A DNA stretch of 16,289 nt from positions 1 through 16,289 of the forward strand of contig JBDRKI010000008.1 in the NCBI GenBank assembly GCA_043814095.1, written 5' to 3'. This document shows, in pieces, positions 305 through 16,289 of this stretch (positions are counted from its first letter, which is position 1; each line of letters begins with the position of its first letter). Both the position numbers and the translations under genes were made by a program. The DNA is from Armatimonadota bacterium (lineage in GTDB: Bacteria > Vulcanimicrobiota > JACPDS01 > JBDRKI01). The notes under the pieces were generated by a model. The model saw only the letters and a program-made list of their open reading frames with translations. It was not told where the DNA came from and ran no database searches.

Positions 305-333
305 ATTATAGCAAAAAGAGGGGCTTGTGTCCA
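305..333 (-). promoter_or_regulatory. sigma70-type promoter on minus strand
   Basis: Minus strand reads TGGACA (333-328), a 17-nt spacer, then TATAAT (310-305) with an extended -10 TGn immediately upstream. Confidence 0.55.
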
Positions 334-743
334 ATATTTTAAGAAAAAATTTGGCGATTGGACAAAAAAATGCCTGCCGCGAACAGGGATTGGGCAATTA
401 GCGGGAAAATTTCAGATAAAGAAATGATTTTGGGACATAATTAACCTATCCCGCTTTATGAATAATTAAGACGCCAACGGCACCTCGTCATCCCAGACAG
501 GGTCTTGACAATACGCATCCCAACCATAATCAATATCCGCGCAGTAATCCGCGGAAGAATCAATTATTCTTTTCAAAACAAAAGTTAATAATATTTCAGA
601 GAAGACATAGTAAAGAAAAATTACCTAAATGATTTAAAACGAATTTTTAATTCTATGCCCAAAGGATGGCAAGATAAAGCTTTCAAGGGCTTGATAAAAT
701 CGGACGAGATATCGATATCAGAATTGCTTAGATAAGAAGCGAT

Positions 744-2357
744 TTAACGGAATTGGTTCTCGTCAAAATCATTTAAAAAACCGGTTGAAGTAACATCCCC
801 GCCCACAACGGATCTTACCACAAGATGTATCTTTGTTTTAAGTGATTTAGTTAAAGATGCCTGCATGTTTTTTACCTGAGGTGCTTCTATTATTTTAGGG
901 GTTCTTGCAACTGCGAATACCAGAAGATAGTCATTTTTCTTTTTATACCTGAATTCGGTAAGTTCTGCTCCTTTTACGGTTTTATGTAAATTTACCCGCA
1001 GTTGTTTTTCAATCTCATCATGAAATTTTAATTCTTCCGGTGTAAGTTTTTTTCCCACCTCTTCAGGCTGGTAAAGATACTGCTGTGCGTCAGCAACGGA
1101 TGTAATGCTTGATGTTATAATGAGTTTTACCTGCCGTCCGTCCGCGCTGTTTATATTATCCTGTATTTTTTCAACTTCATCGGGTGTTATCTTATGCGGG
1201 GTTCTTACGGTTGCCATTATGGTATGGGTATCTTTGTCTATGAGCACATCGGCAAGCTGGGTGCCCGGGTAGTTTTTAAGCTGGTCAACAAGCAGCTTTG
1301 AGAGGGAATCCGTTTTTTTCTGGTATTCCATGTTTTTTATCTCTGATTCGTCTAAAAATACGGGGCCTTTACTGTCGCTTGCTTTTGAAGACAGGGATTC
1401 AACAATCAGGTAAATTTTAGGGTTTAATTTCTCCCTTAACTCTTGTTGTATTTGAGATATTCTTAAAGGTTCCAGAGGGTGCTGGGTTAGTACGTCAATA
1501 GTTACGTCTATTGAATTTTTCGTTTTAGTATATTCTGTATCAAGAATTCTGGTTCCGGCTATAGAGTTTATCTCTTCTTTCAGTATAGTATTTAATTTTT
1601 CCGAGAACCTGTTCTCGTTTATCATATTTACGAAAGTATAGGTCATAAAACCTGCCAGGATAAACAGTATTATTATGCTGGGAGCGAATTTTCTTGTGAA
1701 AACTGCGGCGGTACCGTTTTGCTGTTCTCTTTTGGGCAGCATTCCCATAAATAAAAAAACAAGCGCTGCCATAAGTTCTATTGATATAAGGTTGGCGAGG
1801 AAGAAGAAAAATGCGCCTGCTGCCTGGGACCATCTTCCTACCGCTAAACATAACCCGCATGCCGCAAGAGGAGGAAGAAGGGCGGTTGCTACGGCTATGC
1901 CTGCAAGGGCGGCGCTTATCCGTTTATACAAAAGTGCGTAAGTCCCGGCGAGCCCTGCCGCCAGGGCAATGATAACATCATATATGTTGGGATGGGTTCT
2001 TGCTAAAATCTCTGTACCGAATGCCGGCCGCATGGGTACCAACCCTATAATAACAGATATGCCTAAAGCAAGGAGTATGCCTAAAATTTCGGCAAAGAGC
2101 GCGTCTCTTGTAAGTTTATTATTTCCCGTTAATAATCCAAGGGCTATGCCGAATATAGGGCCCATAAGAGGGGCCACGAGCATAGCGCCTATAACTACAG
2201 CGGCGCTGTTTGAAAGAAGCCCGTATGAAGCTATTACAGCAGAAAGGCACATCATAAGAAAATACGATTTTTTAGGGGAAGAAAGATCTATAATATTTTT
2301 TCTCAGCTCTTCCTTCGGTTCTATATCGGTATCCGGCAGTATCCTGAATGCGTTCAT
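744..2357 (-). CDS. DUF389 / TIGR00341-family integral membrane protein with extended C-terminal region
   Basis: Motifs IASYGLLSNSAAVVIGAMLVAPLMGPI, EILART.PNIYD..IALAAG.AG, LAGIAVATALLPPL..CG and FLANL..I; about 7 hydrophobic segments; AAGGTG RBS-like sequence before ATG. Confidence 0.88.
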   Translation of the reverse strand: MNAFRILPDTDIEPKEELRKNIIDLSSPKKSYFLMMCLSAVIASYGLLSNSAAVVIGAMLVAPLMGPIFGIALGLLTGNNKLTRDALFAEILGILLALGISVIIGLVPMRPAFGTEILARTHPNIYDVIIALAAGLAGTYALLYKRISAALAGIAVATALLPPLAACGLCLAVGRWSQAAGAFFFFLANLISIELMAALVFLFMGMLPKREQQNGTAAVFTRKFAPSIIILFILAGFMTYTFVNMINENRFSEKLNTILKEEINSIAGTRILDTEYTKTKNSIDVTIDVLTQHPLEPLRISQIQQELREKLNPKIYLIVESLSSKASDSKGPVFLDESEIKNMEYQKKTDSLSKLLVDQLKNYPGTQLADVLIDKDTHTIMATVRTPHKITPDEVEKIQDNINSADGRQVKLIITSSITSVADAQQYLYQPEEVGKKLTPEELKFHDEIEKQLRVNLHKTVKGAELTEFRYKKKNDYLLVFAVARTPKIIEAPQVKNMQASLTKSLKTKIHLVVRSVVGGDVTSTGFLNDFDENQFR

Positions 2358-2361
2358 CTTG

Positions 2362-3144
2362 TCACCTTGCTTTTGCTTTTATATTTATAATCGGCTTTAT
2401 AACAGGCTTCATGGTCTTTAAAAGCCGGTTCTTAAATCCCGGTATGACTATCACTTTATTCTTATTTAAAGCTTCCATGGATTCATTCACGACGTCTTCC
2501 GCGTTCATCCATAATATTTTAGGGATTTTATCCCTATGATCGGATTTATATTCAGAGGTATCATGGAAGCCAGTGTAAGTAAATCCCGGGCAGAGGGCCT
2601 GGACTTTAACTCCGGTGCCTTTAAGCTCTGCGCTTAATCCTTCGGAGAAGAAACTCATAAAGCATTTTGTGGCCCCGTAGTTTATCCCCTTTGGTACAGG
2701 CGTAAACCCGGCCATTGAGGATACATTTATGATTACTCCTTCACCGTGTGATATCATTTTCGGCAGCGCCGCGTGAGTTAAGCGGAGCATGGCCGTTATG
2801 TGCACTGTTATCATATCGGTTTCTTTATCTATGTTGCTTTTATAGAAGTAGCCGGGGGATGTGCCGAAACCCGCGTTGTTTATAAGGATATACAGGTCAT
2901 TCATAAGGGCTATCTGTTTTTCCAGTTTAATTATATCTGTGAGTTTTGAAAGATCAGCAGTAAGAACCTCGGCATTTACGGAGTATTTTGCCTCAAGCCG
3001 GCATGCAAGTTTTTCTAAAAGATTTTTCCTTCTTGCGGTAAGCACGAGATTGTATCCCAGAGAAGCAAGCTTTTTTGCGAATACTTCGCCTATGCCACTT
3101 GAAGCTCCGGTTATAAGGGCGGTTTTTGTTTTTTTATCGTCCAC
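2362..3144 (-). CDS. Short-chain dehydrogenase/reductase (SDR), probably NADP-dependent
   Basis: TGASSGIG nucleotide-binding motif, ARR, NNAG, catalytic Ser (NVSS) and YGATK (YxxxK), LCPGFT.T. GTG start with GGGGGA RBS. Confidence 0.93.
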   Translation of the reverse strand: MDDKKTKTALITGASSGIGEVFAKKLASLGYNLVLTARRKNLLEKLACRLEAKYSVNAEVLTADLSKLTDIIKLEKQIALMNDLYILINNAGFGTSPGYFYKSNIDKETDMITVHITAMLRLTHAALPKMISHGEGVIINVSSMAGFTPVPKGINYGATKCFMSFFSEGLSAELKGTGVKVQALCPGFTYTGFHDTSEYKSDHRDKIPKILWMNAEDVVNESMEALNKNKVIVIPGFKNRLLKTMKPVIKPIINIKAKAR

Positions 3145-3175
3145 GGTATCCCCCGTAAAACAGACTTATTTATTT

Positions 3176-4492
3176 TTAAGATTTAGTTTCTTTATTTTTG
3201 CCTTCTTTTAAAGTTAAATCAACGTCTTCCCAGATATTATTGGTAAGATTTTCAACCTGTTCTGGAGTTTGTTTTCCTCCGGATTCTTTTACCTGTTTAG
3301 CAATGTCTTCCTTTAGTTTCTCTTTATTGAATTTTTCAGGGTTAGCATCAAACCATAGTGCTCTCTGAACTACGGTTTTAAGGTATTTTTCTTTAGGCAT
3401 ATCCGTATGGAATTTATCGGCATCGGACAGTTTTTTGCCTGCCTTAATAATTTCAGCGGGGATCTCATATTTTTCAGGATATTCCCACTGATTTTCTACT
3501 GTCCATTCAGGTTTTGGTTTTCCCTCTTCCTTGATTTGCTCCGGGGTAGGCGGTGGTATTAAGTCGGGAGAAAGGCAGTAACCGGGAACTTCCACTACTG
3601 TTACCGGTTCTTTTAATTCTACAGCTACATCTTCACTTATCATCATGGTCTGTACGCCTTCTGTTTCAGGGCATACAGGAGTACCTGACGGGATCTCAAG
3701 AACATATGCATCGGGGGTTGTACGGGTGATTTCCAGAACAAAAACATCACCTGCCGCTATCCCTTTACCTGTAAAATCTATTCTTGCCCTGCCGAATCTT
3801 ACGGCATCACGTATAAGCGCCACACCTCTTGGATCGTAATTTCTAGCGTTTATCTTTCTTTTATTAGCTGCTGTCAGCGCGTCATAATATGTTTTTCTAC
3901 GTCTTCTTATTTCGTCAATCTGAACTTGGCTAAGGCCGGTTTTTGCTGCTTCTTCAAGTTCCTTGTCATAAGCTTCGCACTCATTCATATCCCGGGATTT
4001 ATCACCGTCTATCCATGTGCCGCTTTTAGCCTGGTCAGCATGAACAAATTCATGCAGTTTTGTAGTGCCCAGTAATTCCGCATTTTCAAACGCGTTTTCC
4101 CCGATTTTGACAGTTCCGCTTTTAGATGTTTCCGCTTCTCCTGTAACCCCAAGATCATACTGTGGTTCGCCTTTAACATTAGTGGCATCAGGCTTATAAT
4201 ACTTATCTGCCAGCTCTATTGCTTCCTGACGGGCCTTTTCAAATTTATCAAGCAGGTCAAATGCTTCTTCTCTGAATTTTCTTGCCTTCTCTTTATCATC
4301 CGCTCTATAAGCTTCTCTCATTTTATCGATTTTATCTTTGATATCTTGTTTTAACTGGTTGCCTTCATCAATTTTATCCTGAATTTCTTGTTTCTGTGCA
4401 GCGGTCGGCGCCTGATATGCGTTAGCTACCTGAGGCATGAGTACTGAGAAGAGAAATATTAAACAAATCAGTAAAATTAATTTTCTTTTCAT
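3176..4492 (-). CDS. Secreted protein: coiled-coil N-terminus, HExxH zinc-metallopeptidase-like domain, C-terminal YC...QxAxW domain
   Basis: Signal peptide MKRKLILL...ANA; HEFVH at 4054-4040 with downstream NECEAY (candidate third-ligand Glu); GYCLSP and VQRALW in the C-terminal half; GGAGG RBS. Confidence 0.65.
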   Translation of the reverse strand: MKRKLILLICLIFLFSVLMPQVANAYQAPTAAQKQEIQDKIDEGNQLKQDIKDKIDKMREAYRADDKEKARKFREEAFDLLDKFEKARQEAIELADKYYKPDATNVKGEPQYDLGVTGEAETSKSGTVKIGENAFENAELLGTTKLHEFVHADQAKSGTWIDGDKSRDMNECEAYDKELEEAAKTGLSQVQIDEIRRRRKTYYDALTAANKRKINARNYDPRGVALIRDAVRFGRARIDFTGKGIAAGDVFVLEITRTTPDAYVLEIPSGTPVCPETEGVQTMMISEDVAVELKEPVTVVEVPGYCLSPDLIPPPTPEQIKEEGKPKPEWTVENQWEYPEKYEIPAEIIKAGKKLSDADKFHTDMPKEKYLKTVVQRALWFDANPEKFNKEKLKEDIAKQVKESGGKQTPEQVENLTNNIWEDVDLTLKEGKNKETKS

Positions 4493-4520
4493 TTATTTAG
4501 CCTCCATCTCTTTATCAAAA

Positions 4521-5072
4521 TTATTTTTTAATGGTAATCTTAACAGTGTTAGATTTAAGATTTCCTGTCCAGGCTTTCATGCCTTCTGCTTGAGCTCTGT
4601 TGCTGTAAACTGCGAATATAGTATAAAGGCCAGGTTCTTTTAAACCATAAGCCTCGGTAAGGTCATAGCCTTTTATATCGAAAAACCCCATAAAATTAGG
4701 TTTTTCTATGCTTTCCCCAGGATTTAAGGTGGTAAAATCCTCAAGTTTAGGTTCACCTGCTCTGATACGCAGCTGGAAGGGAAGCTGGATACCCTTAGCG
4801 TTCTTAATCACGAAATATACCTCGTGCGGGCTCGGTGATTCAAAATTAACTAAAAAACGTTCATTAACCCTGATCGGTTCTTTGCTTATATTAGTCAGTA
4901 TCATTTTGCATAATACGTGTTCGTCTGCATTAAAGGTTGTTTTATCAAAAACAATTTCAAATTTCAAAGGCGCCTCCGTAACAGGTTCCTCCGTCCAAAC
5001 AGGATTTACGGCCATATACAGCATAAATCCAAATACAAGCAGAGTGACAGCCATTTTAATCATGCGTTTCAT
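4521..5072 (-). CDS. Secreted hypothetical protein, Ig-like beta-sandwich resembling M35 metallopeptidase prodomains
   Basis: Signal peptide; pattern LTNISKEPIRV...DFTTLNPGES...DLTEAYGLKEPGLYTI...SNTVKITI; AGGAGG RBS. The ORF is solid, but the family resemblance is by eye. Confidence 0.6.
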   Translation of the reverse strand: MKRMIKMAVTLLVFGFMLYMAVNPVWTEEPVTEAPLKFEIVFDKTTFNADEHVLCKMILTNISKEPIRVNERFLVNFESPSPHEVYFVIKNAKGIQLPFQLRIRAGEPKLEDFTTLNPGESIEKPNFMGFFDIKGYDLTEAYGLKEPGLYTIFAVYSNRAQAEGMKAWTGNLKSNTVKITIKK

Positions 5073-5076
5073 AATT

Positions 5077-5799
5077 TTATTCCTCCTTTTTACTATCAGG
5101 ACATTGATTTTTTTCCATAGAAGGTTTTTTTGTTAAATCTATAGTTTCCCATGTTTCCTTTTTAGATGTTGTTTCTATTTCACAGGTTTTCCAGTTATAT
5201 GAAATATCATAAGTTCTGGGCCCTGTGAGGGCTTTGATTTCAAAACTGTAGATATTTTCGCTTCCCCCGGAAGTTATAACAGTTTGTTCATTGCCGTCGG
5301 GAAGCGCGACTACATCAGGGGATTGGTTCTTAAAATTAATTTCTACCGGGTTTTCGGTCCCCGTTACTTTGAATGTTCCTGTTATGGTTTTTCCGACTTT
5401 GGCAATCGGATCGGTTACCGTAAGAGTTATTTTTATTCTCGGAGCCTTGGATGTAATATCTTCTTTTTCGCCTAATTTAAAAGGCGCGGGATTACTTTTT
5501 TTACCGTCAATTTCCACAATTACATCACATTCTTCGATCCCTTCAGGGACCTCTACCGCGATCGATTTTTCAGCGGCAACTACAATTTTAGCGGTTTTGT
5601 CCCCGAAAAATACCTTGACTTTGCTTTTGTCGGCAGTAAAGCCGCTTCCCCTTATGAAAACCATTTCTCCCGCAGGCGCGGTATCGGGGAATACTTTATC
5701 TATTTTCGGAGTTTCCTGGGTATATCCGCGCACTATTAGAAGCATAGAAAAAATTAATATGAGAAGTATTATAAAAAGTTTTCTTTTCTGAATTTGCAT
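5077..5799 (-). CDS. Secreted IPT/TIG domain protein
   Basis: Signal/anchor peptide, then PKIDKVFP...AGEMVFIRGSGF...VKVFFG...IAVEVP...SNPAPF (TIG consensus), plus a second beta-rich domain; GGGGA RBS. Confidence 0.75.
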   Translation of the reverse strand: MQIQKRKLFIILLILIFSMLLIVRGYTQETPKIDKVFPDTAPAGEMVFIRGSGFTADKSKVKVFFGDKTAKIVVAAEKSIAVEVPEGIEECDVIVEIDGKKSNPAPFKLGEKEDITSKAPRIKITLTVTDPIAKVGKTITGTFKVTGTENPVEINFKNQSPDVVALPDGNEQTVITSGGSENIYSFEIKALTGPRTYDISYNWKTCEIETTSKKETWETIDLTKKPSMEKNQCPDSKKEE

Positions 5800-5934
5800 T
5801 ATTCCCCCATAATTAATATTATCTTTTATATTCTATTATTTAATAAATAGCCCTTTTTATTTTAAGAAAGTCATGATAGGAAAAAAGCATAAATGTACGA
5901 AGAGATAATATATATTTTAATAAAGAGGTGCGAT

Positions 5935-6402
5935 ATGACTTCAAAGAAAAAATCATGGCGTGAAAAATTAAATAATTCTAAAGGTTTGCCTAAAGTATCG
6001 AAATTAACCGGAAAGATGGCCGAAAAATGGGGCAAGGGCACGATAGCTATCCCTGCGCCCTTGGAAGTTGATAATATTATGAAGAAGGTTCCCAAAGGCA
6101 GAGTTACAACCGTAAATGAGATACGTTCAATTATAGCCAAGAAACATAAAGCTACAATAGGATGTCCTATGGTTACCGGTATTTTTGCCCGGATATCGGC
6201 AGAGGCGGCTTGTGAAGCTGAAAAAGAAGGGCAGAAAAACATAACCCCTTACTGGCGCACGTTAAAATCAGGCGGGGTGATAAACGAAAAATACCCCGGC
6301 GGGGCAGAAGCACAGAAAAAACTTCTGGAAAAAGAAGGACATAAAGTAATTAAAAAAGGCAGTAAATTCGTGGTTCTGGATTTTGAGAAGTACCTTTACT
6401 GA
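5935..6402 (+). CDS. MGMT-family DNA-binding / alkyltransferase-like (ATL) protein
   Basis: VPKGRVTT HTH entry and PYWR in place of catalytic PCHR, followed by G.INEKYPGG.EAQ..LLE.EG. Start moved from 5893 to ATG 5935, which follows a GAGGTG RBS. Confidence 0.8.
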   Translation: MTSKKKSWREKLNNSKGLPKVSKLTGKMAEKWGKGTIAIPAPLEVDNIMKKVPKGRVTTVNEIRSIIAKKHKATIGCPMVTGIFARISAEAACEAEKEGQKNITPYWRTLKSGGVINEKYPGGAEAQKKLLEKEGHKVIKKGSKFVVLDFEKYLY

Positions 6403-7898
6403 TTTATTTCATCAAGAAAGTCACAGGTATCTTTATATAATCCTGTTTCTACTTTAATTTCATAACCCAGTTCCAGATGCAGGTCTTTTTCAGAGTTGTA
6501 GGAAGGCCAGAAGGGGAGCTCATCGGAGTTAGGGTTTCCCGTCTTGGCAAAATTAGTCCAGTACATCATAACAGCGTTCGAAAGCTTAAAATCTATATCT
6601 TTATAACCGCTTGTTTTTTCATCTTTTAAAGTGCCGAACACGTAATCTATCTCCACTCCGTGATGGGCTCCGAGTTTTTTACCTTCTTCCGTCATGGGTA
6701 TCCACGTAAACTGGTAAAGATAAGCCTTGTTTCCAGCTCTGTCAACGGATTTGGCGATTACTCTCGCGGGGTGCGCAAACCCGGCAATGGTTAAGAGGCG
6801 GTTTGCCGCGGAAGATGTGTCTTCATCTTTTTTTACGGGGAATCTTTTTAATATCTCAGGAGAGTTTTCCCCGAATAATTTGTTGACCCATCCTTTATAA
6901 TCTTCAACAGTCATGTCTTTTAAAAATATCGTGCCTTCATCAAGGTTGGATCCCACGATTACCGGTATATTATGCTGAGTAGTTTCTTTAAAAGAGATGA
7001 CGGGGTCGTCGGGTATTATCCAGCCGTCGTATACCGGTCCCATATTTAAAGTTTTAAAAAGATCTTCGGTGTCTATACCTGCCGCGTCTATAAGTTCATG
7101 GGGAGTTTTTGATCTCAGCGCTTCCAAAATATCCGGCTCTTTATCACAGCCCAGTTTTGCCGTAATTTCATCGCCTGTTTTCAAAGCCTGCTTTAACCTG
7201 CCGGTAAAATCAGGGGCTATGTACCTGTTAGTTAAGGGGGCGCCGCTTTCTAATATCGCTTTATGGAATAATCCTTTTGTAAGAGGGCTTGTCATAAGAA
7301 TACTTATGCTTAAGCTTCCCGCTGACTCTCCGAAAACAGTCACATTACTTGGATCACCGCCGAATTCCCGGATATTTTTCTTTACCCAGTTTAAACCGGC
7401 TATCTGGTCCATAAGTCCGTAATTTCCGGATGCGCCCTGGCGTGATTCTCTTGAAAGAAGCCGGTGGACCATAAACCCGAGAGCGCCTAGCCTGTAGTTT
7501 ATGGTTACAACCACAACACCGAGCTTTGCAAGGTGATCCCCTCTGTATATGGGCTCTGACCCGGAGCCCCCTATAAAAGCCCCGCCGTGTATCCAGAACA
7601 TCACGGGGAGGTTGTCTTCTTTGGTATGAGCGGGTGTCCATATATTAAGATAAAGGCAGTCTTCGCTTTGTGAAGTTATAGTGGAAGTATGCTGAGAAGA
7701 AGCTTGAGGGCAGGCAGGTCCGAACTGGTCGGCATTACGTACACCGTACCATTGATCGTAAGGCGCGGGCTCTTTCCAGCGCATATTTTCCGCGGTTGAA
7801 GCGGCGAAAGGGATGCCTTTGAACGCCGAAATAACGGATCCTGATTCTGAGGGAGCGCTGCGCAGGACACCTGATTCTGTTTTGGCAAGTAAGATCAT
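6396..7898 (-). CDS. Type-B carboxylesterase/lipase (alpha/beta hydrolase, PnbA-like)
   Basis: FKGIPFA, SEDCLYLNIWTP, WIHGGAF, NYRLG, NYGLMDQ, nucleophile GESAG, acid NLDEG, catalytic His in HGVE. Confidence 0.95.
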   Translation of the reverse strand: MILLAKTESGVLRSAPSESGSVISAFKGIPFAASTAENMRWKEPAPYDQWYGVRNADQFGPACPQASSQHTSTITSQSEDCLYLNIWTPAHTKEDNLPVMFWIHGGAFIGGSGSEPIYRGDHLAKLGVVVVTINYRLGALGFMVHRLLSRESRQGASGNYGLMDQIAGLNWVKKNIREFGGDPSNVTVFGESAGSLSISILMTSPLTKGLFHKAILESGAPLTNRYIAPDFTGRLKQALKTGDEITAKLGCDKEPDILEALRSKTPHELIDAAGIDTEDLFKTLNMGPVYDGWIIPDDPVISFKETTQHNIPVIVGSNLDEGTIFLKDMTVEDYKGWVNKLFGENSPEILKRFPVKKDEDTSSAANRLLTIAGFAHPARVIAKSVDRAGNKAYLYQFTWIPMTEEGKKLGAHHGVEIDYVFGTLKDEKTSGYKDIDFKLSNAVMMYWTNFAKTGNPNSDELPFWPSYNSEKDLHLELGYEIKVETGLYKDTCDFLDEINQ

Positions 7899-8033
7899 CT
7901 TTTATCCCTACCTTAATTTAATAGGTTATCATATTACTTCTTATATTATAAATAATTTCCTTTGAAGGTGAAAAAGGTAAAAAGGAATCTTTTACGAATT
8001 TCTTTTTGTATGAAACGTTCAGGGAGGATAAAT

Positions 8034-8471
8034 ATGGTTAAAAAACATCATTTATGTCTAATACTGCTTGTATCCGCGGTTATATTATCTTCAATAATAC
8101 TGCCCGCGGCCGGCATAGAAGCAGAGACTTATTCAATACTAACCGATGCTCCCGCAGGGCTCAAACCGGGACAGTCGGGTGATATTACCGTTAAGATTAA
8201 GGCAAAACAGGGATTTAAGATCAATAACGCTTATCCGATTAAACTTAAAATGTCCGCGCCTCCTGACGGTATTCAGTATAAAAAGCTTACATTGAAAAGA
8301 GAAGACGGCATGCTTGAAGCCGACGGAAAGATATTTGTATTTAAAGTGCCCGTAACCGCTGTTCAAGCAGGCACATTCAGGGTTAAAGGCGAGCTTAAAT
8401 TCAGCGTGTGCAATGATTCAAGGTGTGTGATTGAAAAGAAAACAATAACCGCGAACATGGTTGTGCATTAA
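8034..8471 (+). CDS. Secreted DsbD N-terminal-domain-like protein
   Basis: ATG 8034 after GGGAGG RBS (preferred over 7962); signal peptide; Ig-like pattern with GFKIN...P and a C-terminal FSVCNDSRC cysteine pair typical of nDsbD-like domains. Confidence 0.6.
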   Translation: MVKKHHLCLILLVSAVILSSIILPAAGIEAETYSILTDAPAGLKPGQSGDITVKIKAKQGFKINNAYPIKLKMSAPPDGIQYKKLTLKREDGMLEADGKIFVFKVPVTAVQAGTFRVKGELKFSVCNDSRCVIEKKTITANMVVH

Positions 8472-8489
8472 AAAAAAATCAAGGTAAAA

Positions 8490-9137
8490 ATGACAAAAAA
8501 AGATGATTTTACGCCTTTAAAGGCTATTATATATTATATACCGTGGACGGGTTTCTTCTGGGGAGTATTTCTCCCTGTAAACCTTATTTATCTCTTTAAA
8601 TATTTTAATAAACCTATTTTAGGCGTTTATACGGCTCTGCTGTGCTGTGCTCTTTTCTTCTTTATTTATTACGGCATTACTAAAAAGATAAATGTTTTTC
8701 CCATAGTAACTTTTTCAATGACTTCCATAGCCTTTATATCATTTTTTTTAAGGCACCATAAGTATCTTTATTACGCGGTGCTCGGCTCAGGTGATTATAT
8801 GCTTGGTACTATTTTCCTTATCACAATCCTTACACCAAAGCCTTTTATTCTTTACTTTGTGGATGAGGATAATCTTAAAAAAATACCCGATATCATAAGG
8901 GATTCAAAGTATTATTTAAGGGCATGGAAGATAGTTACCGCTGTATGGGGATTGATGTATATAAAGGTTTCGTTGGTATTAACTTATTTAAGATTTATCC
9001 ATTCAAAAGATTTTGATTATATAAGCTTTGTAACAGGATGGCCTATGGTATTGATATTATTAATCTTCAGCGTTCTGTTTCCCCATTATTACTGGAGTGC
9101 TAATATAAAGAATATGGAAAAGAAAGACTTAAATTAA
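8490..9137 (+). CDS. Hypothetical integral membrane protein (about 6 TM)
   Basis: Multiple hydrophobic segments; KPF..YF and ..T.VWG patterns; AAGG RBS; co-oriented 18 nt after the previous gene. Confidence 0.7.
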   Translation: MTKKDDFTPLKAIIYYIPWTGFFWGVFLPVNLIYLFKYFNKPILGVYTALLCCALFFFIYYGITKKINVFPIVTFSMTSIAFISFFLRHHKYLYYAVLGSGDYMLGTIFLITILTPKPFILYFVDEDNLKKIPDIIRDSKYYLRAWKIVTAVWGLMYIKVSLVLTYLRFIHSKDFDYISFVTGWPMVLILLIFSVLFPHYYWSANIKNMEKKDLN

Positions 9138-10237
9138 ACAAATAAAAGAACTATAAATGTTATAAACAAGACAAGCTGTACCGCTCCGCTTAAAGATGTT
9201 GTTTCACCTGATCCGTAACTGTTCATGCTTACCAGCATTGTTACCCCCAATAAAACTGCCTGTACCAGGGTTAATGCCAGGATAACAGGTTTGCTTGCTA
9301 TAATGGATATTATAATAATAGCCGGTATTGTCAGGCTCATTGTTGAAAGAGCAGAGCCGAGAGATATATTCATAACCCTCTGCATATGGTCTTTTGTGCC
9401 TGCCAGAATCGCGGTAAGCGCCTCAGGAGAAAGTATTAAAATGGCAACAACAAGAGAAGCAAGTTCTACAGGCAGGTTTAATACATCAACCCCGTAGTCT
9501 ATTATTACGGCTATTTTTTCACCGACATATGCTATTGAGAGCAGTAATAGAAAAAGAAGGATCATATGGTAAGGCATGCCCTTAAAAACGGGTTCTTTTT
9601 TCACAAAAGAAGGCAGAATACTTTTTTTGGATTCGAAAGTAAAGAAGTACCTGTGTTCTTTTGTCTGTATATGGAGAAATATAAGATAAAGCAATGCTAT
9701 GGGGAAAATCAGGAATACCCGGTAAGCATAAAGGGATTCATGATGTATCACCATGGGAAGGAAAAAGGCTATCCCGGCTATTGTTATTATCATTGAGAAA
9801 AATGCTCTGGAGCTTTTAAAATTATAATGCTGGGCCCCGTGTTTTAAGCCGCCGAAGAGCATTGCAAGCCCTATCTGGGCATTAAGTATAATCATAAGTG
9901 TTGCGTAAATTGTGTCTCTTGCCATTGTGGGATTATTCTTTGTATGCAGCATTATAATTGATATCATAATTACTTCAATTGATACCGCGGATAATGTGAG
10001 TATAAGGGTGCCTAAAGGTTCTCCGGTTTTATGGGCCAGAGTTTCAGCGTGTTTTACCACACCTATTGCTCCTATTATAATTACAAGGAAGAACCATAAG
10101 AATTTAAGCAGTGTGAGCCATTTATTGGCGCCTAGATTTGAAATAATGCTTTTATCAAAAAAAAGTATAATAAGGGCAGTTATAGCTGCGAGGATAAGAC
10201 TTTTTTCTTCTTTTATAAAACGGAGTATCTTTTTCAT
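9134..10237 (-). CDS. chaA: Ca2+/H+ antiporter, CaCA superfamily (ChaA-like)
   Basis: HAE.LA...GEP.GTLILTLS...IEV (alpha-1 repeat), ARDT, L.GG.KHG.Q.YN, ILSPE (alpha-2 repeat), MQR..NISLGSALST..LTIP; about 11 TM segments. Confidence 0.88.
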   Translation of the reverse strand: MKKILRFIKEEKSLILAAITALIILFFDKSIISNLGANKWLTLLKFLWFFLVIIIGAIGVVKHAETLAHKTGEPLGTLILTLSAVSIEVIMISIIMLHTKNNPTMARDTIYATLMIILNAQIGLAMLFGGLKHGAQHYNFKSSRAFFSMIITIAGIAFFLPMVIHHESLYAYRVFLIFPIALLYLIFLHIQTKEHRYFFTFESKKSILPSFVKKEPVFKGMPYHMILLFLLLLSIAYVGEKIAVIIDYGVDVLNLPVELASLVVAILILSPEALTAILAGTKDHMQRVMNISLGSALSTMSLTIPAIIIISIIASKPVILALTLVQAVLLGVTMLVSMNSYGSGETTSLSGAVQLVLFITFIVLLFV

Positions 10238-10374
10238 TACTTCCTCTGTTAATTAAATTAGGAAAAAAAATATTTTATCCTTCATAAATTATCTGAAAAA
10301 TCAGAACTAATTAAAATTAAAGGATAATAATTTGCTTTTGCGAATACCATATTGTTTTGTAAATAGGAGGAAAA

Positions 10375-10875
10375 TTGTCTCCTGAAAAAAGAGAAAGCAG
10401 ATTATCCGATATCTTAAGGTTTTTCGTAAGCATTATAATCTGCCAGCTGGCAGGTATAATAGGGGCTTTTTTCACTTCCGCTTCGGTAAGCTCATGGTAC
10501 GTAACTCTCAATAAGCCTTCTTTTACCCCTCCCGAATGGCTTTTTGCCCCTGTATGGACATCCCTTTATTTTCTTATGAGTATCTCACTTTTTCTTGTAT
10601 GGAGAAAATATAAATGCGAGAAGCAGGCAGGGGAGGCCTTGAAAATATTTATGATCCAGCTTCTTTTAAATATTTTATGGTCTCTTGCATTTTTCGGGAT
10701 GGAAGCACCCCTCAGCGGGTTAGTAATTATAATTATTCTGCTTATCTTCATATTAATTACAATCGTAAAATTCTATAATATATCAAAGTCGGCAGCAATC
10801 CTTCTTATCCCGTATTTCTTATGGGTATGTTATGCATCGGTGCTTAATTTCTATCTCTGGAGGCTCAATATTTGA
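10375..10875 (+). CDS. tspO: TspO/MBR family tryptophan-rich sensory protein
   Basis: WY.TLNKPSFTPP.WLFAPVWT.LY.LM, QL.LN.LWS..FFG, A.LLIPY..WV.YA..LN; AGGAGG RBS before TTG start. Confidence 0.95.
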   Translation: MSPEKRESRLSDILRFFVSIIICQLAGIIGAFFTSASVSSWYVTLNKPSFTPPEWLFAPVWTSLYFLMSISLFLVWRKYKCEKQAGEALKIFMIQLLLNILWSLAFFGMEAPLSGLVIIIILLIFILITIVKFYNISKSAAILLIPYFLWVCYASVLNFYLWRLNI

Positions 10876-11288
10876 GGCTCTGGAGCATACATCCCGGGTA
10901 TCTTTCCGGGCAGCGTCTTACTGCCCTCTGGCGTGAAGCCCTCCTTGCGCAAAAGGTTCTTCAGGGTAAGACAAAAGGTTATAAGAATCATCCCCAGCTT
11001 CTAAGATTTAAAGCACACCCATATCCCTTAAAAGCTATATCGGCTTACCTTATTTATGTACATGAAGAAGCAGAAAAAAGGGGATATAATTTTGATAAAA
11101 GCAAGATAAAAGATACTCCTTCAAAAAGAAAGATACCCGTAACAGACGGACAGCTTAAATATGAATTTAAACATTTATGCATAAAGCTTAAAAAATGTAT
11201 ACCTGCCCGTATTAAAACAGTAAAACAGCATTCTTTTTTTAAAGTTATAAAAGGCGGCATAGAAAAATGGGAAAAGATAAAAAGTTAG
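10872..11288 (+). CDS. Pyrimidine dimer DNA glycosylase / T4 endonuclease V-like protein
   Basis: MRLWSIHP.YL....L.ALWRE.LLAQKVL.G.TKGY.NHPQL.RF, EA..RGYNFD.SKI, VT.GQ..YE..HL. The TTG start overlaps the tspO stop (TTGA). Confidence 0.85.
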   Translation: MRLWSIHPGYLSGQRLTALWREALLAQKVLQGKTKGYKNHPQLLRFKAHPYPLKAISAYLIYVHEEAEKRGYNFDKSKIKDTPSKRKIPVTDGQLKYEFKHLCIKLKKCIPARIKTVKQHSFFKVIKGGIEKWEKIKS

Positions 11289-11719
11289 ATAAATATAACA
11301 GTAAAAGAGATGAGAATATATTTGTTGTCCAGGAACATCACTCTAGTCATCTTCATTATGATTTCCGGCTCCAGATGGAAGGCGTTTTAAAATCATGGGC
11401 GGTACCTAAAGGCATATCCCAAGAACCGTCCATAAGGCGGCTTGCCGTACCTACAGAAGATCACCCTCTCGGGTATGCGAATTTTGAAGGGGCTATCCCT
11501 GAAGGGGAGTACGGAGCAGGTAAGGTCATTATATGGGATAAAGGCACATACGAGAATTTAAATGCAAGACAATCCATTGAAGAATCCTACAAGGCAGGAA
11601 AGCTTGAGGTTTTATTAAAAGGGAAGAAATTAAAAGGCGGATTTGCATTAATCCGCCTTAAAAAAAATCCTAAGGATAAAGAAGCTTCCTGGATTATAAT
11701 AAAGATGAAAAATGATTAA
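11267..11719 (+). CDS. Stand-alone LigD 3'-phosphoesterase (PE) domain protein
   Basis: FVVQEH...HLHYDFRL...GVLKSWAVPKG, RLAV.TEDHP..Y..FEG.IP.GEYGAG.V.IWD.G, G.KL.G.F.L; no ligase or polymerase domain attached. Confidence 0.92.
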   Translation: MGKDKKLDKYNSKRDENIFVVQEHHSSHLHYDFRLQMEGVLKSWAVPKGISQEPSIRRLAVPTEDHPLGYANFEGAIPEGEYGAGKVIIWDKGTYENLNARQSIEESYKAGKLEVLLKGKKLKGGFALIRLKKNPKDKEASWIIIKMKND

Positions 11720-13069
11720 TTATTCTTCATCTTTGCCTTTTCTTATCTGTTCCACTGTTATGGTGCTTGGTTCATAACCCAGCTCAATTGCTTTATCAAG
11801 ATACTTAACTGCTTTATCATGATCTTTTTTCTTGTAATATGATAATGCCATATTGTAATAAACCATTCCGGAAGTAGGATCTAACTTAAGCGCCTTTTTG
11901 TAATATTCAATTGCCTTGTCGTATATTTTATTTGCGGCATAAGCCTTCCCGATATTATTATAAGGGTTCATGTTATCCGGCTGTAATTCAATTACTTTCT
12001 CCCATGCGGCAATTGCTTCTTCATCCATCTGTTTCATGTAATAAGCTATGCCCATGTTATTATATGCTCCGACAAAATAAGGGTTTAAAGCTATTGCCTT
12101 TTTATATAACGCGATAGAGTCATCATAGTTCTCGTTTTCCCTGTAAAGGTTGGCAAGATTATAATAAGGGTCCGCGTATCCGGGATTAACTTCCATGGAT
12201 TTTAAATACATTGCTATGGATTCGTCTTTACGGTCTGTTCTGTGAAAAATCAACCCCAGGTTATTATATGGTTTTGCTAAAAGAGGATCCAGCTCAATTG
12301 CCTTTTTAAGCATCTGTTCGGCTTCGGGCAGTTTCCCCATCTTTATATATACCCCGCCGAGATTATTATACGCTTCTGCGGCTCCGGGATTTATCTGGAT
12401 AGCTTTTTCCCAGTGCAGAACCGCCTCGCCGGTTCTGCCGGTTAAGTGGTAGGAACGTCCCAGGTTAATATGCACATTAGCGTTACCGGGATCTATCTTA
12501 AGAGCTTTTTCAAGGACTTCCAATGCTTTATCGTATTGGCCTGTCTCATGGTAGCCCCATCCCAGCTCATTAAGGTAAGTTATATCATCCGGGTCGAATT
12601 CTACGGCTTTTGCCCATGCTCCGACCGCATCTTTGAGCTTGCCCTGACTCGCGTATACTTCCCCTATATTATAATGGGCAAGGGCGTAATCGGGCTTTAT
12701 CTTAACGGCTTTTTTAAAATATTCCAGAGCTTCGTCATAGAGTTTTGTTCTGTAATAAACCATGCCTGTGTTATTTAATGCAGGTGTATTCTTGGGATCT
12801 ACTTTAAGAACTTTTTTAAACAGGGTAAGCGCTTTGTTTAAGCTTTTATTGTGGTAGTAAGCAAGACCCAGCTGGAACTGCGCTTCTGTATTATCGGGGT
12901 CAAGTTTTACCGCTTTTTCGAGTTCTGTTATCGCCCCTTCATAATTTCCATCGGCGATAAGTTTAATACCCGCTTTAAAACAGTTTTCCGCGCTCTCATC
13001 GGAATAAACCGCAGATGATAAGAATAACGCTAAAATAATAAAAAGAGTTATTATAATATTCTTTTTCAT
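11720..13069 (-). CDS. Secreted tetratricopeptide-repeat protein (about 12 TPRs)
   Basis: Signal peptide, then continuous 34-aa repeats (A/PY.NLG..Y...G..DEA....EKA.E.DP) to the C-terminus; GGAGG RBS. Confidence 0.93.
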   Translation of the reverse strand: MKKNIIITLFIILALFLSSAVYSDESAENCFKAGIKLIADGNYEGAITELEKAVKLDPDNTEAQFQLGLAYYHNKSLNKALTLFKKVLKVDPKNTPALNNTGMVYYRTKLYDEALEYFKKAVKIKPDYALAHYNIGEVYASQGKLKDAVGAWAKAVEFDPDDITYLNELGWGYHETGQYDKALEVLEKALKIDPGNANVHINLGRSYHLTGRTGEAVLHWEKAIQINPGAAEAYNNLGGVYIKMGKLPEAEQMLKKAIELDPLLAKPYNNLGLIFHRTDRKDESIAMYLKSMEVNPGYADPYYNLANLYRENENYDDSIALYKKAIALNPYFVGAYNNMGIAYYMKQMDEEAIAAWEKVIELQPDNMNPYNNIGKAYAANKIYDKAIEYYKKALKLDPTSGMVYYNMALSYYKKKDHDKAVKYLDKAIELGYEPSTITVEQIRKGKDEE

Positions 13070-13200
13070 TTTACCTCCGGAAATATTATTGATAATAAAG
13101 TTTCTTTAAATTAAAATGATGTCCTTTGTATATTTAAGATAGAAATAAAAGCAGGTTTTTTCATCTTTAAAGTGTAAATATACTTAAAGAAAAAGTTGAT

Positions 13201-13323
13201 AACTGCCTTGGCGGTGTTTCAATAACACAGGTTGATGTTTCGTCAACCGGATCAAAATGGTCTTTATAGAATTAGAATGAGATCATACTTACATTGCATG
13301 TAAGTATGATCTGCAAGGCAGTT
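13201..13323 (+). ncRNA. Retron msr-msd non-coding RNA
   Basis: Terminal inverted repeat AACTGCCTTG (13201-13210) / CAAGGCAGTT (13314-13323). Unpaired G13211 lies right after the stem, opposite G13313. msr stem-loops GTGTT/AACAC (13214-13228) and GGTTGATG/CGTCAACC (13230-13248, one G-U). Perfect 15-bp msd hairpin AGATCATACTTACAT-TGC-ATGTAAGTATGATCT (13280-13312). The RT start lies 52 nt downstream. Confidence 0.9.
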
Positions 13324-13325
13324 TA

Positions 13326-13350
13326 CGGGGGCGCGTTTAACGCGCCCCCG
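13326..13350. repeat. GC-rich palindrome/hairpin between retron ncRNA and RT RBS
   Basis: CGGGGGCGCGTT-T-AACGCGCCCCCG: 12-nt arms that are exact reverse complements, with the outer 10 bp all G-C. No U-tract follows on either strand. Confidence 0.85.
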
Positions 13351-13375
13351 CATAAATTAAAATAAGGAGAAATCC

Positions 13376-14248
13376 TTGGGTTTTTTAGATAAACTGCTTA
13401 AAGTTTTTGATAAGGGCAGGGATGCCGATGAGCTTTCCCGGCGGCTCGGCATAACATTTGATGACATTGCATCTGTTACGCCTAAATATTCCACATTTGA
13501 GATTCTCAAGCGCGGCGGCGGGACAAGAAAAATCTTATCTCCTGACAGTAGATTAAAAAAAGTGCAGAGGGTTATACTTCACAGGCTTCTCGGGAGGCTC
13601 CCCGTTCATTCTTCTGCTACGGGTTTTAAGAAAAAATCCTCCATTGTAACCAACACAGTTCCTCATATAAACAAAGAAGTTATTGTCAGGATGGACATAA
13701 AAGATTTTTTCGGTTCTACTCCCTCGGAAAGAGTTGAAAAGTATTTTAAAAAGATCGGATGGAATAAAAAAGTGAGCCGTATTCTTACACATATATGCAC
13801 TTATAACGGCGGCCTGCCTCAGGGAGCTCCCACAAGCCCCGTCTTAAGTAATCTTGTAAATTTCCGTCTGGACGCGAGGTTTTCTAAACTTGCGGAAAAA
13901 TTCAAAGCTTCATACACAAGATATGCCGATGATATTACTTTCTCATTTACGGAAGATAACTCCGTAAAAGTAAGGATGCTGATACAGTACGTCAAAAGTA
14001 TTTTAAAAAACGAAGGATACACCCTTCACCAGAAGAAAAAACTGCATATACGGAGAAAACACCAGCGCCAGATAGTAACGGGACTGGTGGTAAATAAAAA
14101 ACCCAGCCTGCCGCGCAAAACCCGCAGATGGCTGAGGGCTGTGCTGAATAACCATTCTAAGAATAAAAACTGCACTCTTTCACCGAAGCAGATTGAAGGA
14201 TGGCGTTCTTTCTCCGAGATGATAAAAAAAGAAACAAAGTGGATTTAA
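13376..14248 (+). CDS. Retron-type reverse transcriptase (290 aa, no fused effector)
   Basis: I.KRGGGTR.I..P...LK.VQR; region X variant NTVPH (13652-13666; consensus NAxxH); MDIKDFF; LPQGAPTSP.LSN; YTRYADDITFS (YADD 13922-13933); retron region Y VTGLVVN (14075-). AAGGAG RBS at 13364-13369 before TTG. Confidence 0.95.
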   Translation: MGFLDKLLKVFDKGRDADELSRRLGITFDDIASVTPKYSTFEILKRGGGTRKILSPDSRLKKVQRVILHRLLGRLPVHSSATGFKKKSSIVTNTVPHINKEVIVRMDIKDFFGSTPSERVEKYFKKIGWNKKVSRILTHICTYNGGLPQGAPTSPVLSNLVNFRLDARFSKLAEKFKASYTRYADDITFSFTEDNSVKVRMLIQYVKSILKNEGYTLHQKKKLHIRRKHQRQIVTGLVVNKKPSLPRKTRRWLRAVLNNHSKNKNCTLSPKQIEGWRSFSEMIKKETKWI

Positions 14249-14253
14249 AAATT

Positions 14254-15039
14254 ATGAAATACATAAATTGCTTTATCATAATCTTATTAACCGCAGTATT
14301 ATTATCTGCAGGTATATACGCGTCTGATATTAAGATCGATAATACACCTTGGAAAAAGATTGATAATATATGCGCGGTAAAAAAAGTAAAAGTAAAAAGA
14401 GCTTCCGATAACAGTAAATACACCGTCTATTTTATAAGATTTAACCCTAAAAAAACAGAGCTTAAAGTTCTTCCTTCAGATAAATACGGGGACAAGATAA
14501 CCGATGTGAAAACCCTGGCTCAAAAAAGCGGCGCCTTCTGCGTTATAAACGGGGGGTTCTTTGATGAGGATTATAACCCCTTAGGCCTCCTTATAACAGA
14601 AGGAAAGATCTTACAGTATATGCCGGAATACGGCAACTTTGCCGTATTCTGCATTAAATACAATAAGCCCCGGGTGCTGCACAGAAGGGATTTTACCTAT
14701 GACGGGGTTGCCGAAGCCCTGCAGTGCAGTCCGCGCCTTATGTCGGACGGGGTTGATACCTCAGGGGTATGTGATCTTGATAAAGAGAGCAGGAGAAGCG
14801 GAATAGGAATAGATAGTCTCGGGAATATAGTTATATACGCTACAGACGATTCCGTATTCGGTGGGACAAGTTTTACTGACTTAAGAAAGATATTCAGGCT
14901 TTCCGATATAAATTTAAGTTCTGTTTTAAGTTTAGACGGGGGCAAATCAACCCAGCTCTATTTTAATCCGGGCAGGAATAAGATAGATATAAAAGGGTAT
15001 GAGAATATGCCCGTCGGGATAGGCTTTTTTAAGAAATAG
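14254..15039 (+). CDS. Secreted phosphodiester glycosidase family protein (NAGPA/DUF2233-like)
   Basis: Start moved to ATG 14254, which exposes a signal peptide (MKYINCFIIILLTAVLLSAGIYA) 5 nt after the RT stop. Motifs INGGFF, PLGL.I..G, ALQ..P.L, RRSGIGID, LSLDGG.STQL. Confidence 0.82.
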   Translation: MKYINCFIIILLTAVLLSAGIYASDIKIDNTPWKKIDNICAVKKVKVKRASDNSKYTVYFIRFNPKKTELKVLPSDKYGDKITDVKTLAQKSGAFCVINGGFFDEDYNPLGLLITEGKILQYMPEYGNFAVFCIKYNKPRVLHRRDFTYDGVAEALQCSPRLMSDGVDTSGVCDLDKESRRSGIGIDSLGNIVIYATDDSVFGGTSFTDLRKIFRLSDINLSSVLSLDGGKSTQLYFNPGRNKIDIKGYENMPVGIGFFKK

Positions 15040-15124
15040 ATCAAAATAGTTAAAAAATCCTATAAAATAATATATTTTTACACTTCTTTCCGTTATTCCT
15101 ATATATAATATATATGTAAAAAGT

Positions 15125-15204
15125 AAAAAAGTTAACAAATTGTTAACTTTTTTTTAATATTTGTAACAATTTGGCAACAATTTGGCAATATAGCTTTGTT
15201 ACAA
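15125..15204. promoter_or_regulatory. Cluster of inverted and direct repeats, probable regulator-binding region upstream of ORF 15246
   Basis: 14-bp perfect inverted repeat AAAAAAGTTAACAA-A-TTGTTAACTTTTTT (15125-15153); tandem 11-mer AACAATTTGGC x2 (15165-15186); inverted pair TTGTAACAA (15161-15169) / TTGTTACAA (15196-15204). Confidence 0.55.
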
Positions 15205-15245
15205 TTAAAGTGTAGATATATATATTATATATAGTTAGGTTATTT

Positions 15246-16289
15246 ATGGATATTTTTAAACACATACATAACAGTACAAAGAAAGCAGTTGATAAAGCTT
15301 CTTCCGCGAAGCGGAAAATGTCTTTTGATATTATTGATGATAAGAATTTTGATAAATATATAAACTTAAGTATAGGGACAAAGTTTCTTACCCATCTTAA
15401 AAAGAAAGATCTTACTCTCTGGAAGATCATTGCGAATAACCAGAGAAAATTAAAAGGCCTTAAGGGAAAAGAATCAGCTTATCTTAAAAAGAAAAAAAAT
15501 ACCTTATTCAAAGTATTCAATGAATACCATGCTAAGAACTCAAGCTACGGTACCTATGTCACAACTACAAACTGTTCTAAAATATTAAAATCATCCCTTG
15601 GATATAATTTCTTAAGGATACTCAAGAAAGATTATCCTGTCCTCCATAAAGGATTCATGCAGAAAGGTTATGACGGGATACAGGATAATACCAAAGTATT
15701 CTTCGCGCATCTTTTTAACAGATACTTTAAATCGGGATGTAATAAAATTGAATTAGGACACCAGTCAGAATACATAAAGAAGATGGTATTCTGGGCTAAA
15801 GGTAAGCATATACAAGTTGCTGAAAAGAAAGATACTAAAAAGAAAGTATATGCCAAACCCGTAAATAAGAATATTGATCCGGTCAGGTATGACCCTGATT
15901 ATCTTAAACTGCTTCTATCATCATCTTCAGGATACAATTTCCTTCAAAAACTTAAAGTATCATGTTCTAAGCTCCATAGAGTATATATACAGCAGAATGA
16001 ACCTAAACTTACAAATTTAAAGAAGTTTGATAAAAAAGCTTACAGGTTACTGGCCGGATTATACGGCAGATACCTTAATTCAGGAAAAGTCCCCAAAACA
16101 GCTTACAGAACACCGCAGGAAGAAGAACAAAGAATAGCCTCTTTTGTAAGAAAGAACCTTAAAACACCTGAAGATATAACTAAATGCATAGAAAAGATAG
16201 AGAAGCTTCCTCCGGAAGAAGCTTTTGTTGCTAAAAAAGTGCTTGGCAATATATTCCTTAAAAAATCACTTATGAACAAGAACCCCGAT
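15246..16289 (+). CDS. Lys-rich hypothetical protein with three internal repeats; 3'-truncated by window end
   Basis: Manual translation from ATG 15246 (AGGT upstream) stays open for 348 codons to the window end: MDIFKHIHNSTKKAVDK...LMNKNPD. Absent from the ORF track because it has no stop in the window. Confidence 0.82.
   Translation, partial: MDIFKHIHNSTKKAVDKASSAKRKMSFDIIDDKNFDKYINLSIGTKFLTHLKKKDLTLWKIIANNQRKLKGLKGKESAYLKKKKNTLFKVFNEYHAKNSSYGTYVTTTNCSKILKSSLGYNFLRILKKDYPVLHKGFMQKGYDGIQDNTKVFFAHLFNRYFKSGCNKIELGHQSEYIKKMVFWAKGKHIQVAEKKDTKKKVYAKPVNKNIDPVRYDPDYLKLLLSSSSGYNFLQKLKVSCSKLHRVYIQQNEPKLTNLKKFDKKAYRLLAGLYGRYLNSGKVPKTAYRTPQEEEQRIASFVRKNLKTPEDITKCIEKIEKLPPEEAFVAKKVLGNIFLKKSLMNKNPD

Follow-up and report, generated by a model that had tools for sequence, protein, structure and literature searches.

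Does the short intergenic region ahead of a reverse transcriptase (RT) gene in an Armatimonadota bacterium encode the RNA of a retron, and if so, what kind of retron would this be? In the current view, a retron is a defence system of three parts: a complex of RT and multicopy single-stranded DNA (msDNA) restrains a toxic effector. We address the question for contig JBDRKI010000008.1 (assembly GCA_043814095.1), of which we analyzed positions 1 to 16,289; this whole stretch of 16,289 nt is called the window here. The element in question lies at 13201-13323 on the plus strand, in the 306 nt that separate two divergently oriented genes, a TPR gene (11720-13069, minus strand) and the RT gene (13376-14248, plus strand). 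An original prediction, made from the sequence and its open reading frames (ORFs), had interpreted this interval as the msr-msd gene of a retron. Comparative evidence supports that interpretation: the same architecture precedes related RTs, its helices covary, and the putative branching G is conserved. Based on these analyses, we consider it very probable that a retron msr-msd gene occupies 13201-13323 and that the adjacent 290-aa protein (13376-14248) is the RT of this retron.

The RNA element, its covariation and the adjacent reverse transcriptase

The element is bounded by an exact 10-nt inverted repeat, with a1 (AACTGCCTTG, 13201-13210) as the 5' arm and a2 (CAAGGCAGTT, 13314-13323) as the 3' arm of a closing stem; an inverted-repeat search found the two arms 103 nt apart. 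In the minimum free energy (MFE) fold, the first unpaired base 3' of a1 is G13211, the predicted branching guanosine, and the three bases G13211-C-G remain unpaired ahead of three msr stem-loops. Stem-loop 1 (SL1, 13214-13228) has 5 bp (13214-13218 / 13224-13228) and the loop UCAAU; stem-loop 2 (SL2, 13230-13248) has 8 bp (13230-13237 / 13241-13248), one of them G-U, and the loop UUU; and stem-loop 3 (SL3, 13249-13263) has 6 bp (13249-13254 / 13258-13263), including two G-U pairs, and the loop AAA. A 16-nt single-stranded linker (13264-13279), which is unpaired in the fold and carries the family motif YUGARAG, leads to the msd hairpin (13280-13312), a perfect 15-bp inverted repeat (13280-13294 / 13298-13312) with the loop UGC, in which all 15 pairs are Watson-Crick. 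The sole base between this hairpin and a2 is the unpaired G13313, the predicted first template base. The MFE of 13201-13323 is -51.8 kcal/mol, compared with -24.8 +/- 3.6 kcal/mol for dinucleotide shuffles (z -7.6, 0/200 as good), and the opposite strand folds more weakly (-42.5 kcal/mol).

Much of this had been anticipated. The original prediction described 10-bp a1/a2 repeats enclosing about 103 nt, G13211, flanked as CCTTG-G-C, as the first unpaired base, two msr stem-loops with a weak third, and an msd hairpin beside the 3' repeat; all of these recur in the sequence and in the MFE fold, with SL3 as the weak third stem-loop. Two of the checks that it had suggested, folding of the RNA and a covariance model built from the RT-upstream regions of homologues, came out in its favor. 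The covariance model, which we refer to as R1, was built from nine homologous loci, with the window excluded, on an RNAalifold/MAFFT alignment. In the window, the boundaries of the R1 match are precisely 13201 and 13323 (65.9 bits, E 4.1e-14), and R1 has no other match in the 2.5-Mb genome to which the window belongs.

We searched R1 against 167 sources, namely the window, 160 fetched loci (80 from species genomes and 80 from metagenomes) and six loci from same-phylum relatives. Matches at E <= 1e-5 were found in 33 of the 167, all on the RT strand and all upstream of the RT match; two of these sources (L004 and L088) are near-identical, which leaves 32 distinct rows. The RT-upstream regions of the relatives share the layout of the window element and differ in their a1/a2 sequences. 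Family members of this non-coding RNA (ncRNA) measure 98-151 nt, mostly about 110 nt, and the original prediction was right to call an ncRNA of about 123 nt small.

The helices of the model are supported by compensatory change. On the plain MAFFT alignment of the nine loci, RNAalifold yields 34 pairs, 19 of them with compensatory change. In a 33-row alignment (A6), standard pairs make up 94.6% of 1020 cells, against a shuffle mean of 73.2%, and two-sided (compensatory) change is seen in 30 of the 34 pairs. The covariation score is 0.581, compared with 0.212 +/- 0.011 for shuffles (0/500 as high) and at most 0.127 when the partners are slid by 1-3 columns. Helix by helix, compensatory change affects 7/8 pairs of a1/a2 (helix 1; 95.3% of cells paired), 6/6 pairs of SL1 (helix 2; 97.2%), 5/8 pairs of SL2, which also has two invariant pairs (99.2%), 5/5 pairs of SL3 (helix 4; 81.6%, the least conserved helix) and 7/7 pairs of the msd hairpin (helix 5; 95.5%). 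Two further MAFFT alignments (A2 and A3) misplaced locus L010 and the long hairpin of the window and were excluded from these counts. Altogether, the fold and the covariation across the homologues show that 13201-13323 forms a structure in which the a1/a2 stem encloses three msr stem-loops and a single msd hairpin.

The protein encoded downstream has the features of a retron RT. Its gene begins with a TTG start codon 6 nt after AAGGAG, and the 290-aa product matches Pfam RVT_1 (7e-21), PADLOC RT_XIII (2.4e-88), with numerous further retron RT models ranking below it, and NCBIfam retron_St85_RT (236.8 bits; cut-off 235). A Pfam search found no extra domain, and the protein aligns with its homologues from residue 1. 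Sections of PMC7736814 give YADD, VTG and NAxxH as retron-typical RT motifs; YADD (RYADDITF) and VTG (QIVTGLVVN) are present in the window RT. Homologues are numerous, with 6241 of 8000 scored candidates at E <= 1e-20, many of them metagenomic, and the 119 best non-self matches share 49-63% identity and are 278-342 aa long. The closest named relatives belong to Planctomycetota and Verrucomicrobiota, with a single one from Riflebacteria.

Conserved bases, the predicted msDNA and competing explanations

Conservation across the 32 distinct rows is concentrated at a few positions. The last a1 base is G in 32/32, the branching-G column (G13211 in the window) is G in 31/32, with the poorly aligned L015 as the exception, and the base directly 5' of a2 (G13313 in the window) is G in 32/32. 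Within SL2, the columns G56, G59, T61, T62, C63, G64 and C66 (G..G.UUCG.C) are invariant in 32/32, and columns 105-112 of the linker are moderately conserved. A conserved G after a1, a fixed G before a2 and an invariant SL2 form the signature that a branching G, a first template base and a hairpin recognized by the RT would be expected to leave. By analogy with characterized retrons, we infer that G13211, the base singled out in the original prediction, is the branch point whose 2'-OH would prime synthesis of complementary DNA (cDNA), and that G13313 is the first template base, in which case the msDNA would begin with dC. SL2 is the most conserved element and likely the RT recognition hairpin.

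The distribution of G-U pairs, summed per helix from the pair table of alignment A6, suggests where the msr ends and the msd begins. G-U pairs occupy 3/179 cells (1.7%) in the msd hairpin and 36/152 (23.7%) in SL3, with intermediate values for SL2 (30/256, 11.7%), SL1 (10/180, 5.6%) and a1/a2 (14/253, 5.5%). A G-U pair is impossible in the complementary DNA, where it becomes an A-C mismatch, and SL3 can thus form only in RNA. Since the msd helix is nearly free of G-U and SL3 is wobble-rich, SL1-SL3 would belong to the msr and the msd hairpin would be re-formed in the DNA copy. Indeed, the cDNA strand of the msd folds as DNA into a 15-bp hairpin (-12.7 kcal/mol, z -7.7). On these alignments, the most likely place for reverse transcription to stop is the linker (13264-13279), and the msDNA would then measure about 35-50 nt, counted from the dC. 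Most relatives have an msd stem of 7 bp with a YGC loop, and in some the stem reaches about 25 bp; as far as the aligned loci indicate, the template hairpin is the variable part, as in other retrons. One Planctomycetota locus (L173; G179:C52) carries two tandem ncRNA copies (135-250 and 301-413), 50 nt apart, which have a common a1/a2 and differing msd hairpins and precede a single 301-aa ORF, a natural two-template arrangement.

Signals on either side of the element bear on its expression. In 18 of the 31 homologues with enough upstream sequence, a TTGAC box starts 31-35 nt before the model start, compared with a background of 0.85% of 15-nt windows; given this fixed position, transcription in the homologues should start at or beside a1. 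In the window, a candidate -10 box (TATACT, 13179-13184, plus strand) was read from the sequence and is weak and not conserved, and a consensus scan gave further promoter candidates at 13089-13117 and 13105-13134. Directly 3' of a2, in an AT-rich region, lies a GC-rich hairpin of 11 bp (13326-13350, plus strand). For the 40 nt that follow a2, the folding energy is -24.6 kcal/mol (window mean -4.5 +/- 3.2 kcal/mol), and no control window reaches so low a value. In 24 of 32 family loci, this position exceeds 95% of the windows of its own locus in stability. The post-a2 hairpins have unrelated sequences between loci, with T-runs behind some of them. The 13326-13350 hairpin is likely a partial terminator or 3' stabilizer that would raise the ratio of ncRNA to RT. 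Closer to the RT gene, a 6-bp hairpin with a GAAA loop (13363-13378), seen in the window sequence only, pairs AAGGAG (13364-13369) with the RT start TTG (13376-13378) in the MFE fold and could damp RT translation.

These observations can be assembled into a mechanism. Transcription would begin just upstream of a1, as the fixed TTGAC box indicates for the homologues and as we assume by extension for the window. The RNA would then adopt the structure indicated by fold and covariation, with a1/a2 closing the three msr stem-loops and the msd hairpin, and the RT would recognize the invariant SL2 together with the a1/a2 stem. Following retron chemistry, the 2'-OH of G13211 would prime cDNA synthesis opposite G13313, both bases being near-invariant, and the RT would copy the msd from 13312 to 13280 before stopping in the linker at 13264-13279. 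This would yield a branched msDNA, about 35-50 nt long with a 15-bp DNA hairpin, joined to about 55-70 nt of msr RNA. The 13326-13350 hairpin would probably end or protect most transcripts, leaving more ncRNA than RT mRNA.

How far reverse transcription would proceed is the part of this mechanism with the strongest competitor. The original prediction had placed the stop somewhere in 13250-13275 and the msDNA at 40-65 nt; this overlaps the favored 13264-13279 and about 35-50 nt, and to that extent it holds, while its upper part is less likely given that SL3 is conserved and wobble-rich. The longer product corresponds to the same retron with reverse transcription running through SL3, to a stop at 13250-13263 or further and an msDNA of about 50-65 nt or more. 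A stop need not sit at a structural border, since the 3' end of msDNA in characterized retrons remains base-paired with the template RNA; this leaves room for read-through, as do a sequence that fixes no stop and the status of SL3 as the least conserved helix, with 81.6% of cells paired. SL3 nevertheless shows compensatory change in 5/5 pairs, and its G-U pairs, each of which the cDNA would turn into an A-C mismatch, fill 36/152 cells compared with 3/179 in the msd; in the window itself, two of the six SL3 pairs are G-U. We consider read-through rather unlikely and continue with a stop in the linker.

Other explanations question whether msDNA is made from this RNA at all. The element may be a structured 5' leader that regulates only the RT, left by a decayed or domesticated retron that makes no msDNA; the missing effector and the isolation of the element in its phylum (1/151 genomes, the window's own) would suit this history, as would a Shine-Dalgarno box and start codon that can pair in the hairpin 13363-13378. 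A mere leader would not need a near-invariant branching G and first template G or a covarying a1/a2, however, and with an RT ORF that is intact, including its catalytic YADD, and an msd helix that avoids wobble, we find this improbable. A cassette of RNA and RT only is also reminiscent of some systems built on non-retron defence-associated RTs (DRT, or unknown-group (UG) type), in which case the RNA would be a template for another kind of cDNA, and the window RT has weak NCBIfam matches to Drt2 and Drt3a (50 bits). Its scores of 295 bits on RT_XIII and 237 bits on retron_St85_RT are far from those roughly 50 bits, it contains VTG, and the architecture of a1/a2 plus G is retron-specific, all of which makes a DRT template very improbable. 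Lastly, the consensus scan marked terminator-like minus-strand sites at 13312-13280 and 13248-13230, which would make the hairpins terminators or other signals of the minus strand. No minus-strand gene ends here, since the TPR gene has its start at 13069 and is oriented away from the element; the conserved G-U pairs exist on the plus strand only, the plus strand folds better, and 33/33 R1 matches lie on the RT strand. We give this explanation almost no credence.

Several points weigh against the identification of the element as a retron msr-msd. It is known from DNA sequence, with no RNA run among the sequencing runs listed for the stretch, and DNA contigs from runs X1 and X5 match well only at 12944-13225 and 14228-14378. 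No retron family is among the Rfam 15 matches for the 13201-13323 region (scan of 12500-14000, E <= 10), and Rfam presumably contains a retron msr family. That scan gave four matches, all sub-threshold, the best of which, Termite-leu RNA (13322-13403; 29.1 bits vs a gathering score of 51, E 7e-4), was taken as a generic two-hairpin likeness. The TTGAC box of 18/31 homologues is absent from the window, and the NAxxH motif reads NTVPH in the window RT, compared with NAxPH in the family consensus. No effector was found at the 33 R1 loci, so the usual tripartite logic of retrons is incomplete, and the placement of the stop site is an indirect argument. Alignment A6 was fitted to the model and leans towards structure, and related rows inflate its cell counts; the MAFFT-based result (19/34) and the slide control speak for a real covariation signal. 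With these points taken into account, a retron msr-msd gene with its own RT remains the explanation that we prefer.

Relation to type XIII and stand-alone retrons

Type XIII retrons reportedly correspond to RT clade 10 of Mestre et al. 2020, a group that is said to include the myxobacterial Mx162 and Mx65. The window locus resembles them in that RT_XIII is the best PADLOC model for its RT and in that ncRNA and RT follow in this order on one strand. In addition, canonical Chitinophagaceae loci have the GAUGUUUCGUC hairpin (SL2) as well, located between their SWIM and RT genes; the Bacteroidota type XIII loci with this hairpin are L017 (2747-2829), L036 (2778-2860), L056, L062, L027, L108, L029 and L030. 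The shared SL2 motif points to a common ancestry of RT-RNA recognition, insofar as a motif can indicate it. The full R1 model, in contrast, is weak on type XIII loci (E 0.002-0.07), and the msd of the window family is a short hairpin. Canonical type XIII loci, represented by L017 from Chitinophaga and L071 from Hyalangium, include WGR/HEAT-ARM_XIII and SWIM_XIII genes and RTs of 531-553 aa. Whereas these RTs span the whole RT_XIII model (620-645 bits), the window RT covers only positions 134-411 of 469 (295 bits) and has no N-terminal extension.

The partner genes of type XIII are also missing. Based on tblastn of the 167 sources, SWIM is present in 0/33 R1 sources vs 58 other sources, and the WGR/HEAT-ARM partner in 0/33 R1 sources vs 29 other sources. 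The window's genome (98.97% complete) yielded no PF04434 or SWIM_XIII match, and its only WGR_XIII match is a 25.5-bit fragment of 57 positions on another contig. We reconstructed a midpoint-rooted maximum-likelihood tree of the RTs by a quick method, with 165 rows after two loci with a match of < 200 residues were left out; it was built from the sampled loci alone, without labelled reference RTs for the published clades. The R1-bearing RTs fall in one 35-row clade with a support of 100 in the Shimodaira-Hasegawa-like approximate likelihood ratio test (SH-aLRT), which consists of 31 R1-bearing RTs plus L020, L081, L094 and L096. Among the latter, L020 and L081 sit on long branches, and L094 has only 3 bases upstream of its RT match. 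The opposing 130-row group contains all 58 SWIM-linked RTs, which sit in a 79-row clade. On this tree of sampled loci, the window RT and its relatives are a clade of their own, related to type XIII and not type XIII as defined by partner genes.

Sections of PMC7736814 describe stand-alone msr-msd-RT cassettes in the Ec107 (Retron-Eco5) branch of clade 2 and in clade 11, and parts of a 2026 survey (PMC13712802) describe accessory-free clade 11 groups, partly from Planctomycetota. The window family is similar to these orphan retrons in that it likewise combines msr-msd and RT without a specifically associated protein. It differs from them when compared by RT models: the window RT scores 228 bits on RT_Ec107-like and 237 bits (in two stretches) on RT_outgroup, both below RT_XIII. 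No actinobacterial locus occurs among the 160 nearest loci. The effector-less state is therefore already known from stand-alone cassettes and is not new in itself.

Retron-Eco1 (Ec86) has a layout like that of the window element, with a1/a2, a branching G after a1, msr stem-loops, an msd hairpin beside a2 and the RT downstream. Its msd is longer, and it is not known to have a hairpin in the stretch from a2 to the RT gene. The Ec86 RNA has no sequence or Rfam-level similarity to the window RNA, and Ec86 has an effector (type II-A3) whereas none was found for the window family. Passages of the retron literature on type XIII, on Planctomycetota msDNA and on the retron census contain no description of the window RNA, and the retron census table of PMC10849725 (supplement 1) has no ncRNA matching the SL2 motif and no Planctomycetes entry. 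Altogether, the window retron is a compact relative of type XIII that lacks an effector and has an otherwise ordinary retron architecture.

Neighbourhood, distribution and possible role

An all-against-all BLASTP of flanking ORFs found no neighbour gene shared among the 33 R1 loci. The sole multi-locus ORF cluster is an ABC ATPase present in the near-identical L004 and L088 and in L144. Pfam matches were obtained for 17 of 37 downstream ORFs from 23 loci, and almost all are to different families: peptidase S9, GH127, BrkB, MgsA, creatininase, DHDPS, peptidase S41, aldolase, LysR, histidine kinase, PIG-L, lysyl-tRNA synthetase, UppS, SHD1 and GFO_IDH_MocA, with ABC ATPases appearing twice.

In the window, the next ORF 3' of the RT (14200-15039, plus strand) encodes a NAGPA (PF09992) phosphodiester glycosidase. 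With translation from a signal-peptide-like start at M19, the start codon would be at 14254, at a distance of 5 nt from the RT stop codon. The ORF is probably co-transcribed with the RT. It was rejected as an effector, having no PADLOC match and being common to no other family locus. The ORF at 15246-16289 was rejected on the same grounds, with no PADLOC match and no counterpart at any other locus. This ORF is lysine-rich and continues beyond the window, and searches of Pfam, NCBIfam and PADLOC gave no family match for it. It contains an internal repeat (...GYNFL..LK... twice), and the G+C content falls to 0.29 there. The upstream TPR protein has generic TPR matches only and was likewise set aside as an effector. 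Also upstream, at 10872-11719, two small DNA repair genes sit side by side; one encodes a pyrimidine-dimer glycosylase (PF03013), the other a protein with a LigD 3'-phosphoesterase domain (PF13298).

Of the 151 Planctomycetota genomes sampled, 15 have an R1 match, including one with two tandem copies; of 150 other sampled genomes of the window's own phylum, none has a match (1/151, the one being the window's). Among 40 same-phylum relatives there is no close RT homologue, the best sharing 38-45% identity. The retron region has a G+C content of about 0.38, equal to its surroundings. Isolation in the phylum together with matching G+C fits an old horizontal acquisition. Judging from the sampled genomes and loci, the RT clade is centered on Planctomycetota and Verrucomicrobiota and is characterized by a compact ncRNA with no conserved effector gene beside it.

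These results allow a broader interpretation, which we put forward tentatively and regard as possible but doubtful. The window retron may be a horizontally acquired member of a large clade, centered on Planctomycetota and Verrucomicrobiota, of truly two-part retrons that consist of an RNA and a 290-aa RT with no effector. Such retrons would mostly have 7-bp template hairpins and an msDNA of about 20-50 nt, their post-a2 hairpin would uncouple the ncRNA from the RT level, and they would act otherwise than by guarding a neighbouring toxin. The shortest characterized msDNA that we know of is about 48 nt, and products of about 20-50 nt would be shorter. If this interpretation is true, the minimal retron would be a very small chassis for DNA production in cells.

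Independently of that, a 123-nt RNA and a 290-aa RT make a compact candidate for DNA production in the cell; the original prediction had proposed the small ncRNA as a candidate for retron-based editing tools. The natural range of msd stems, from 7 to about 25 bp among the aligned loci, suggests that the template hairpin may tolerate replacement. R1 provides a defined, testable RNA model for the clade. That a coherent clade conserves this RNA in fine detail without a partner gene raises the question of what effector-less retrons do.

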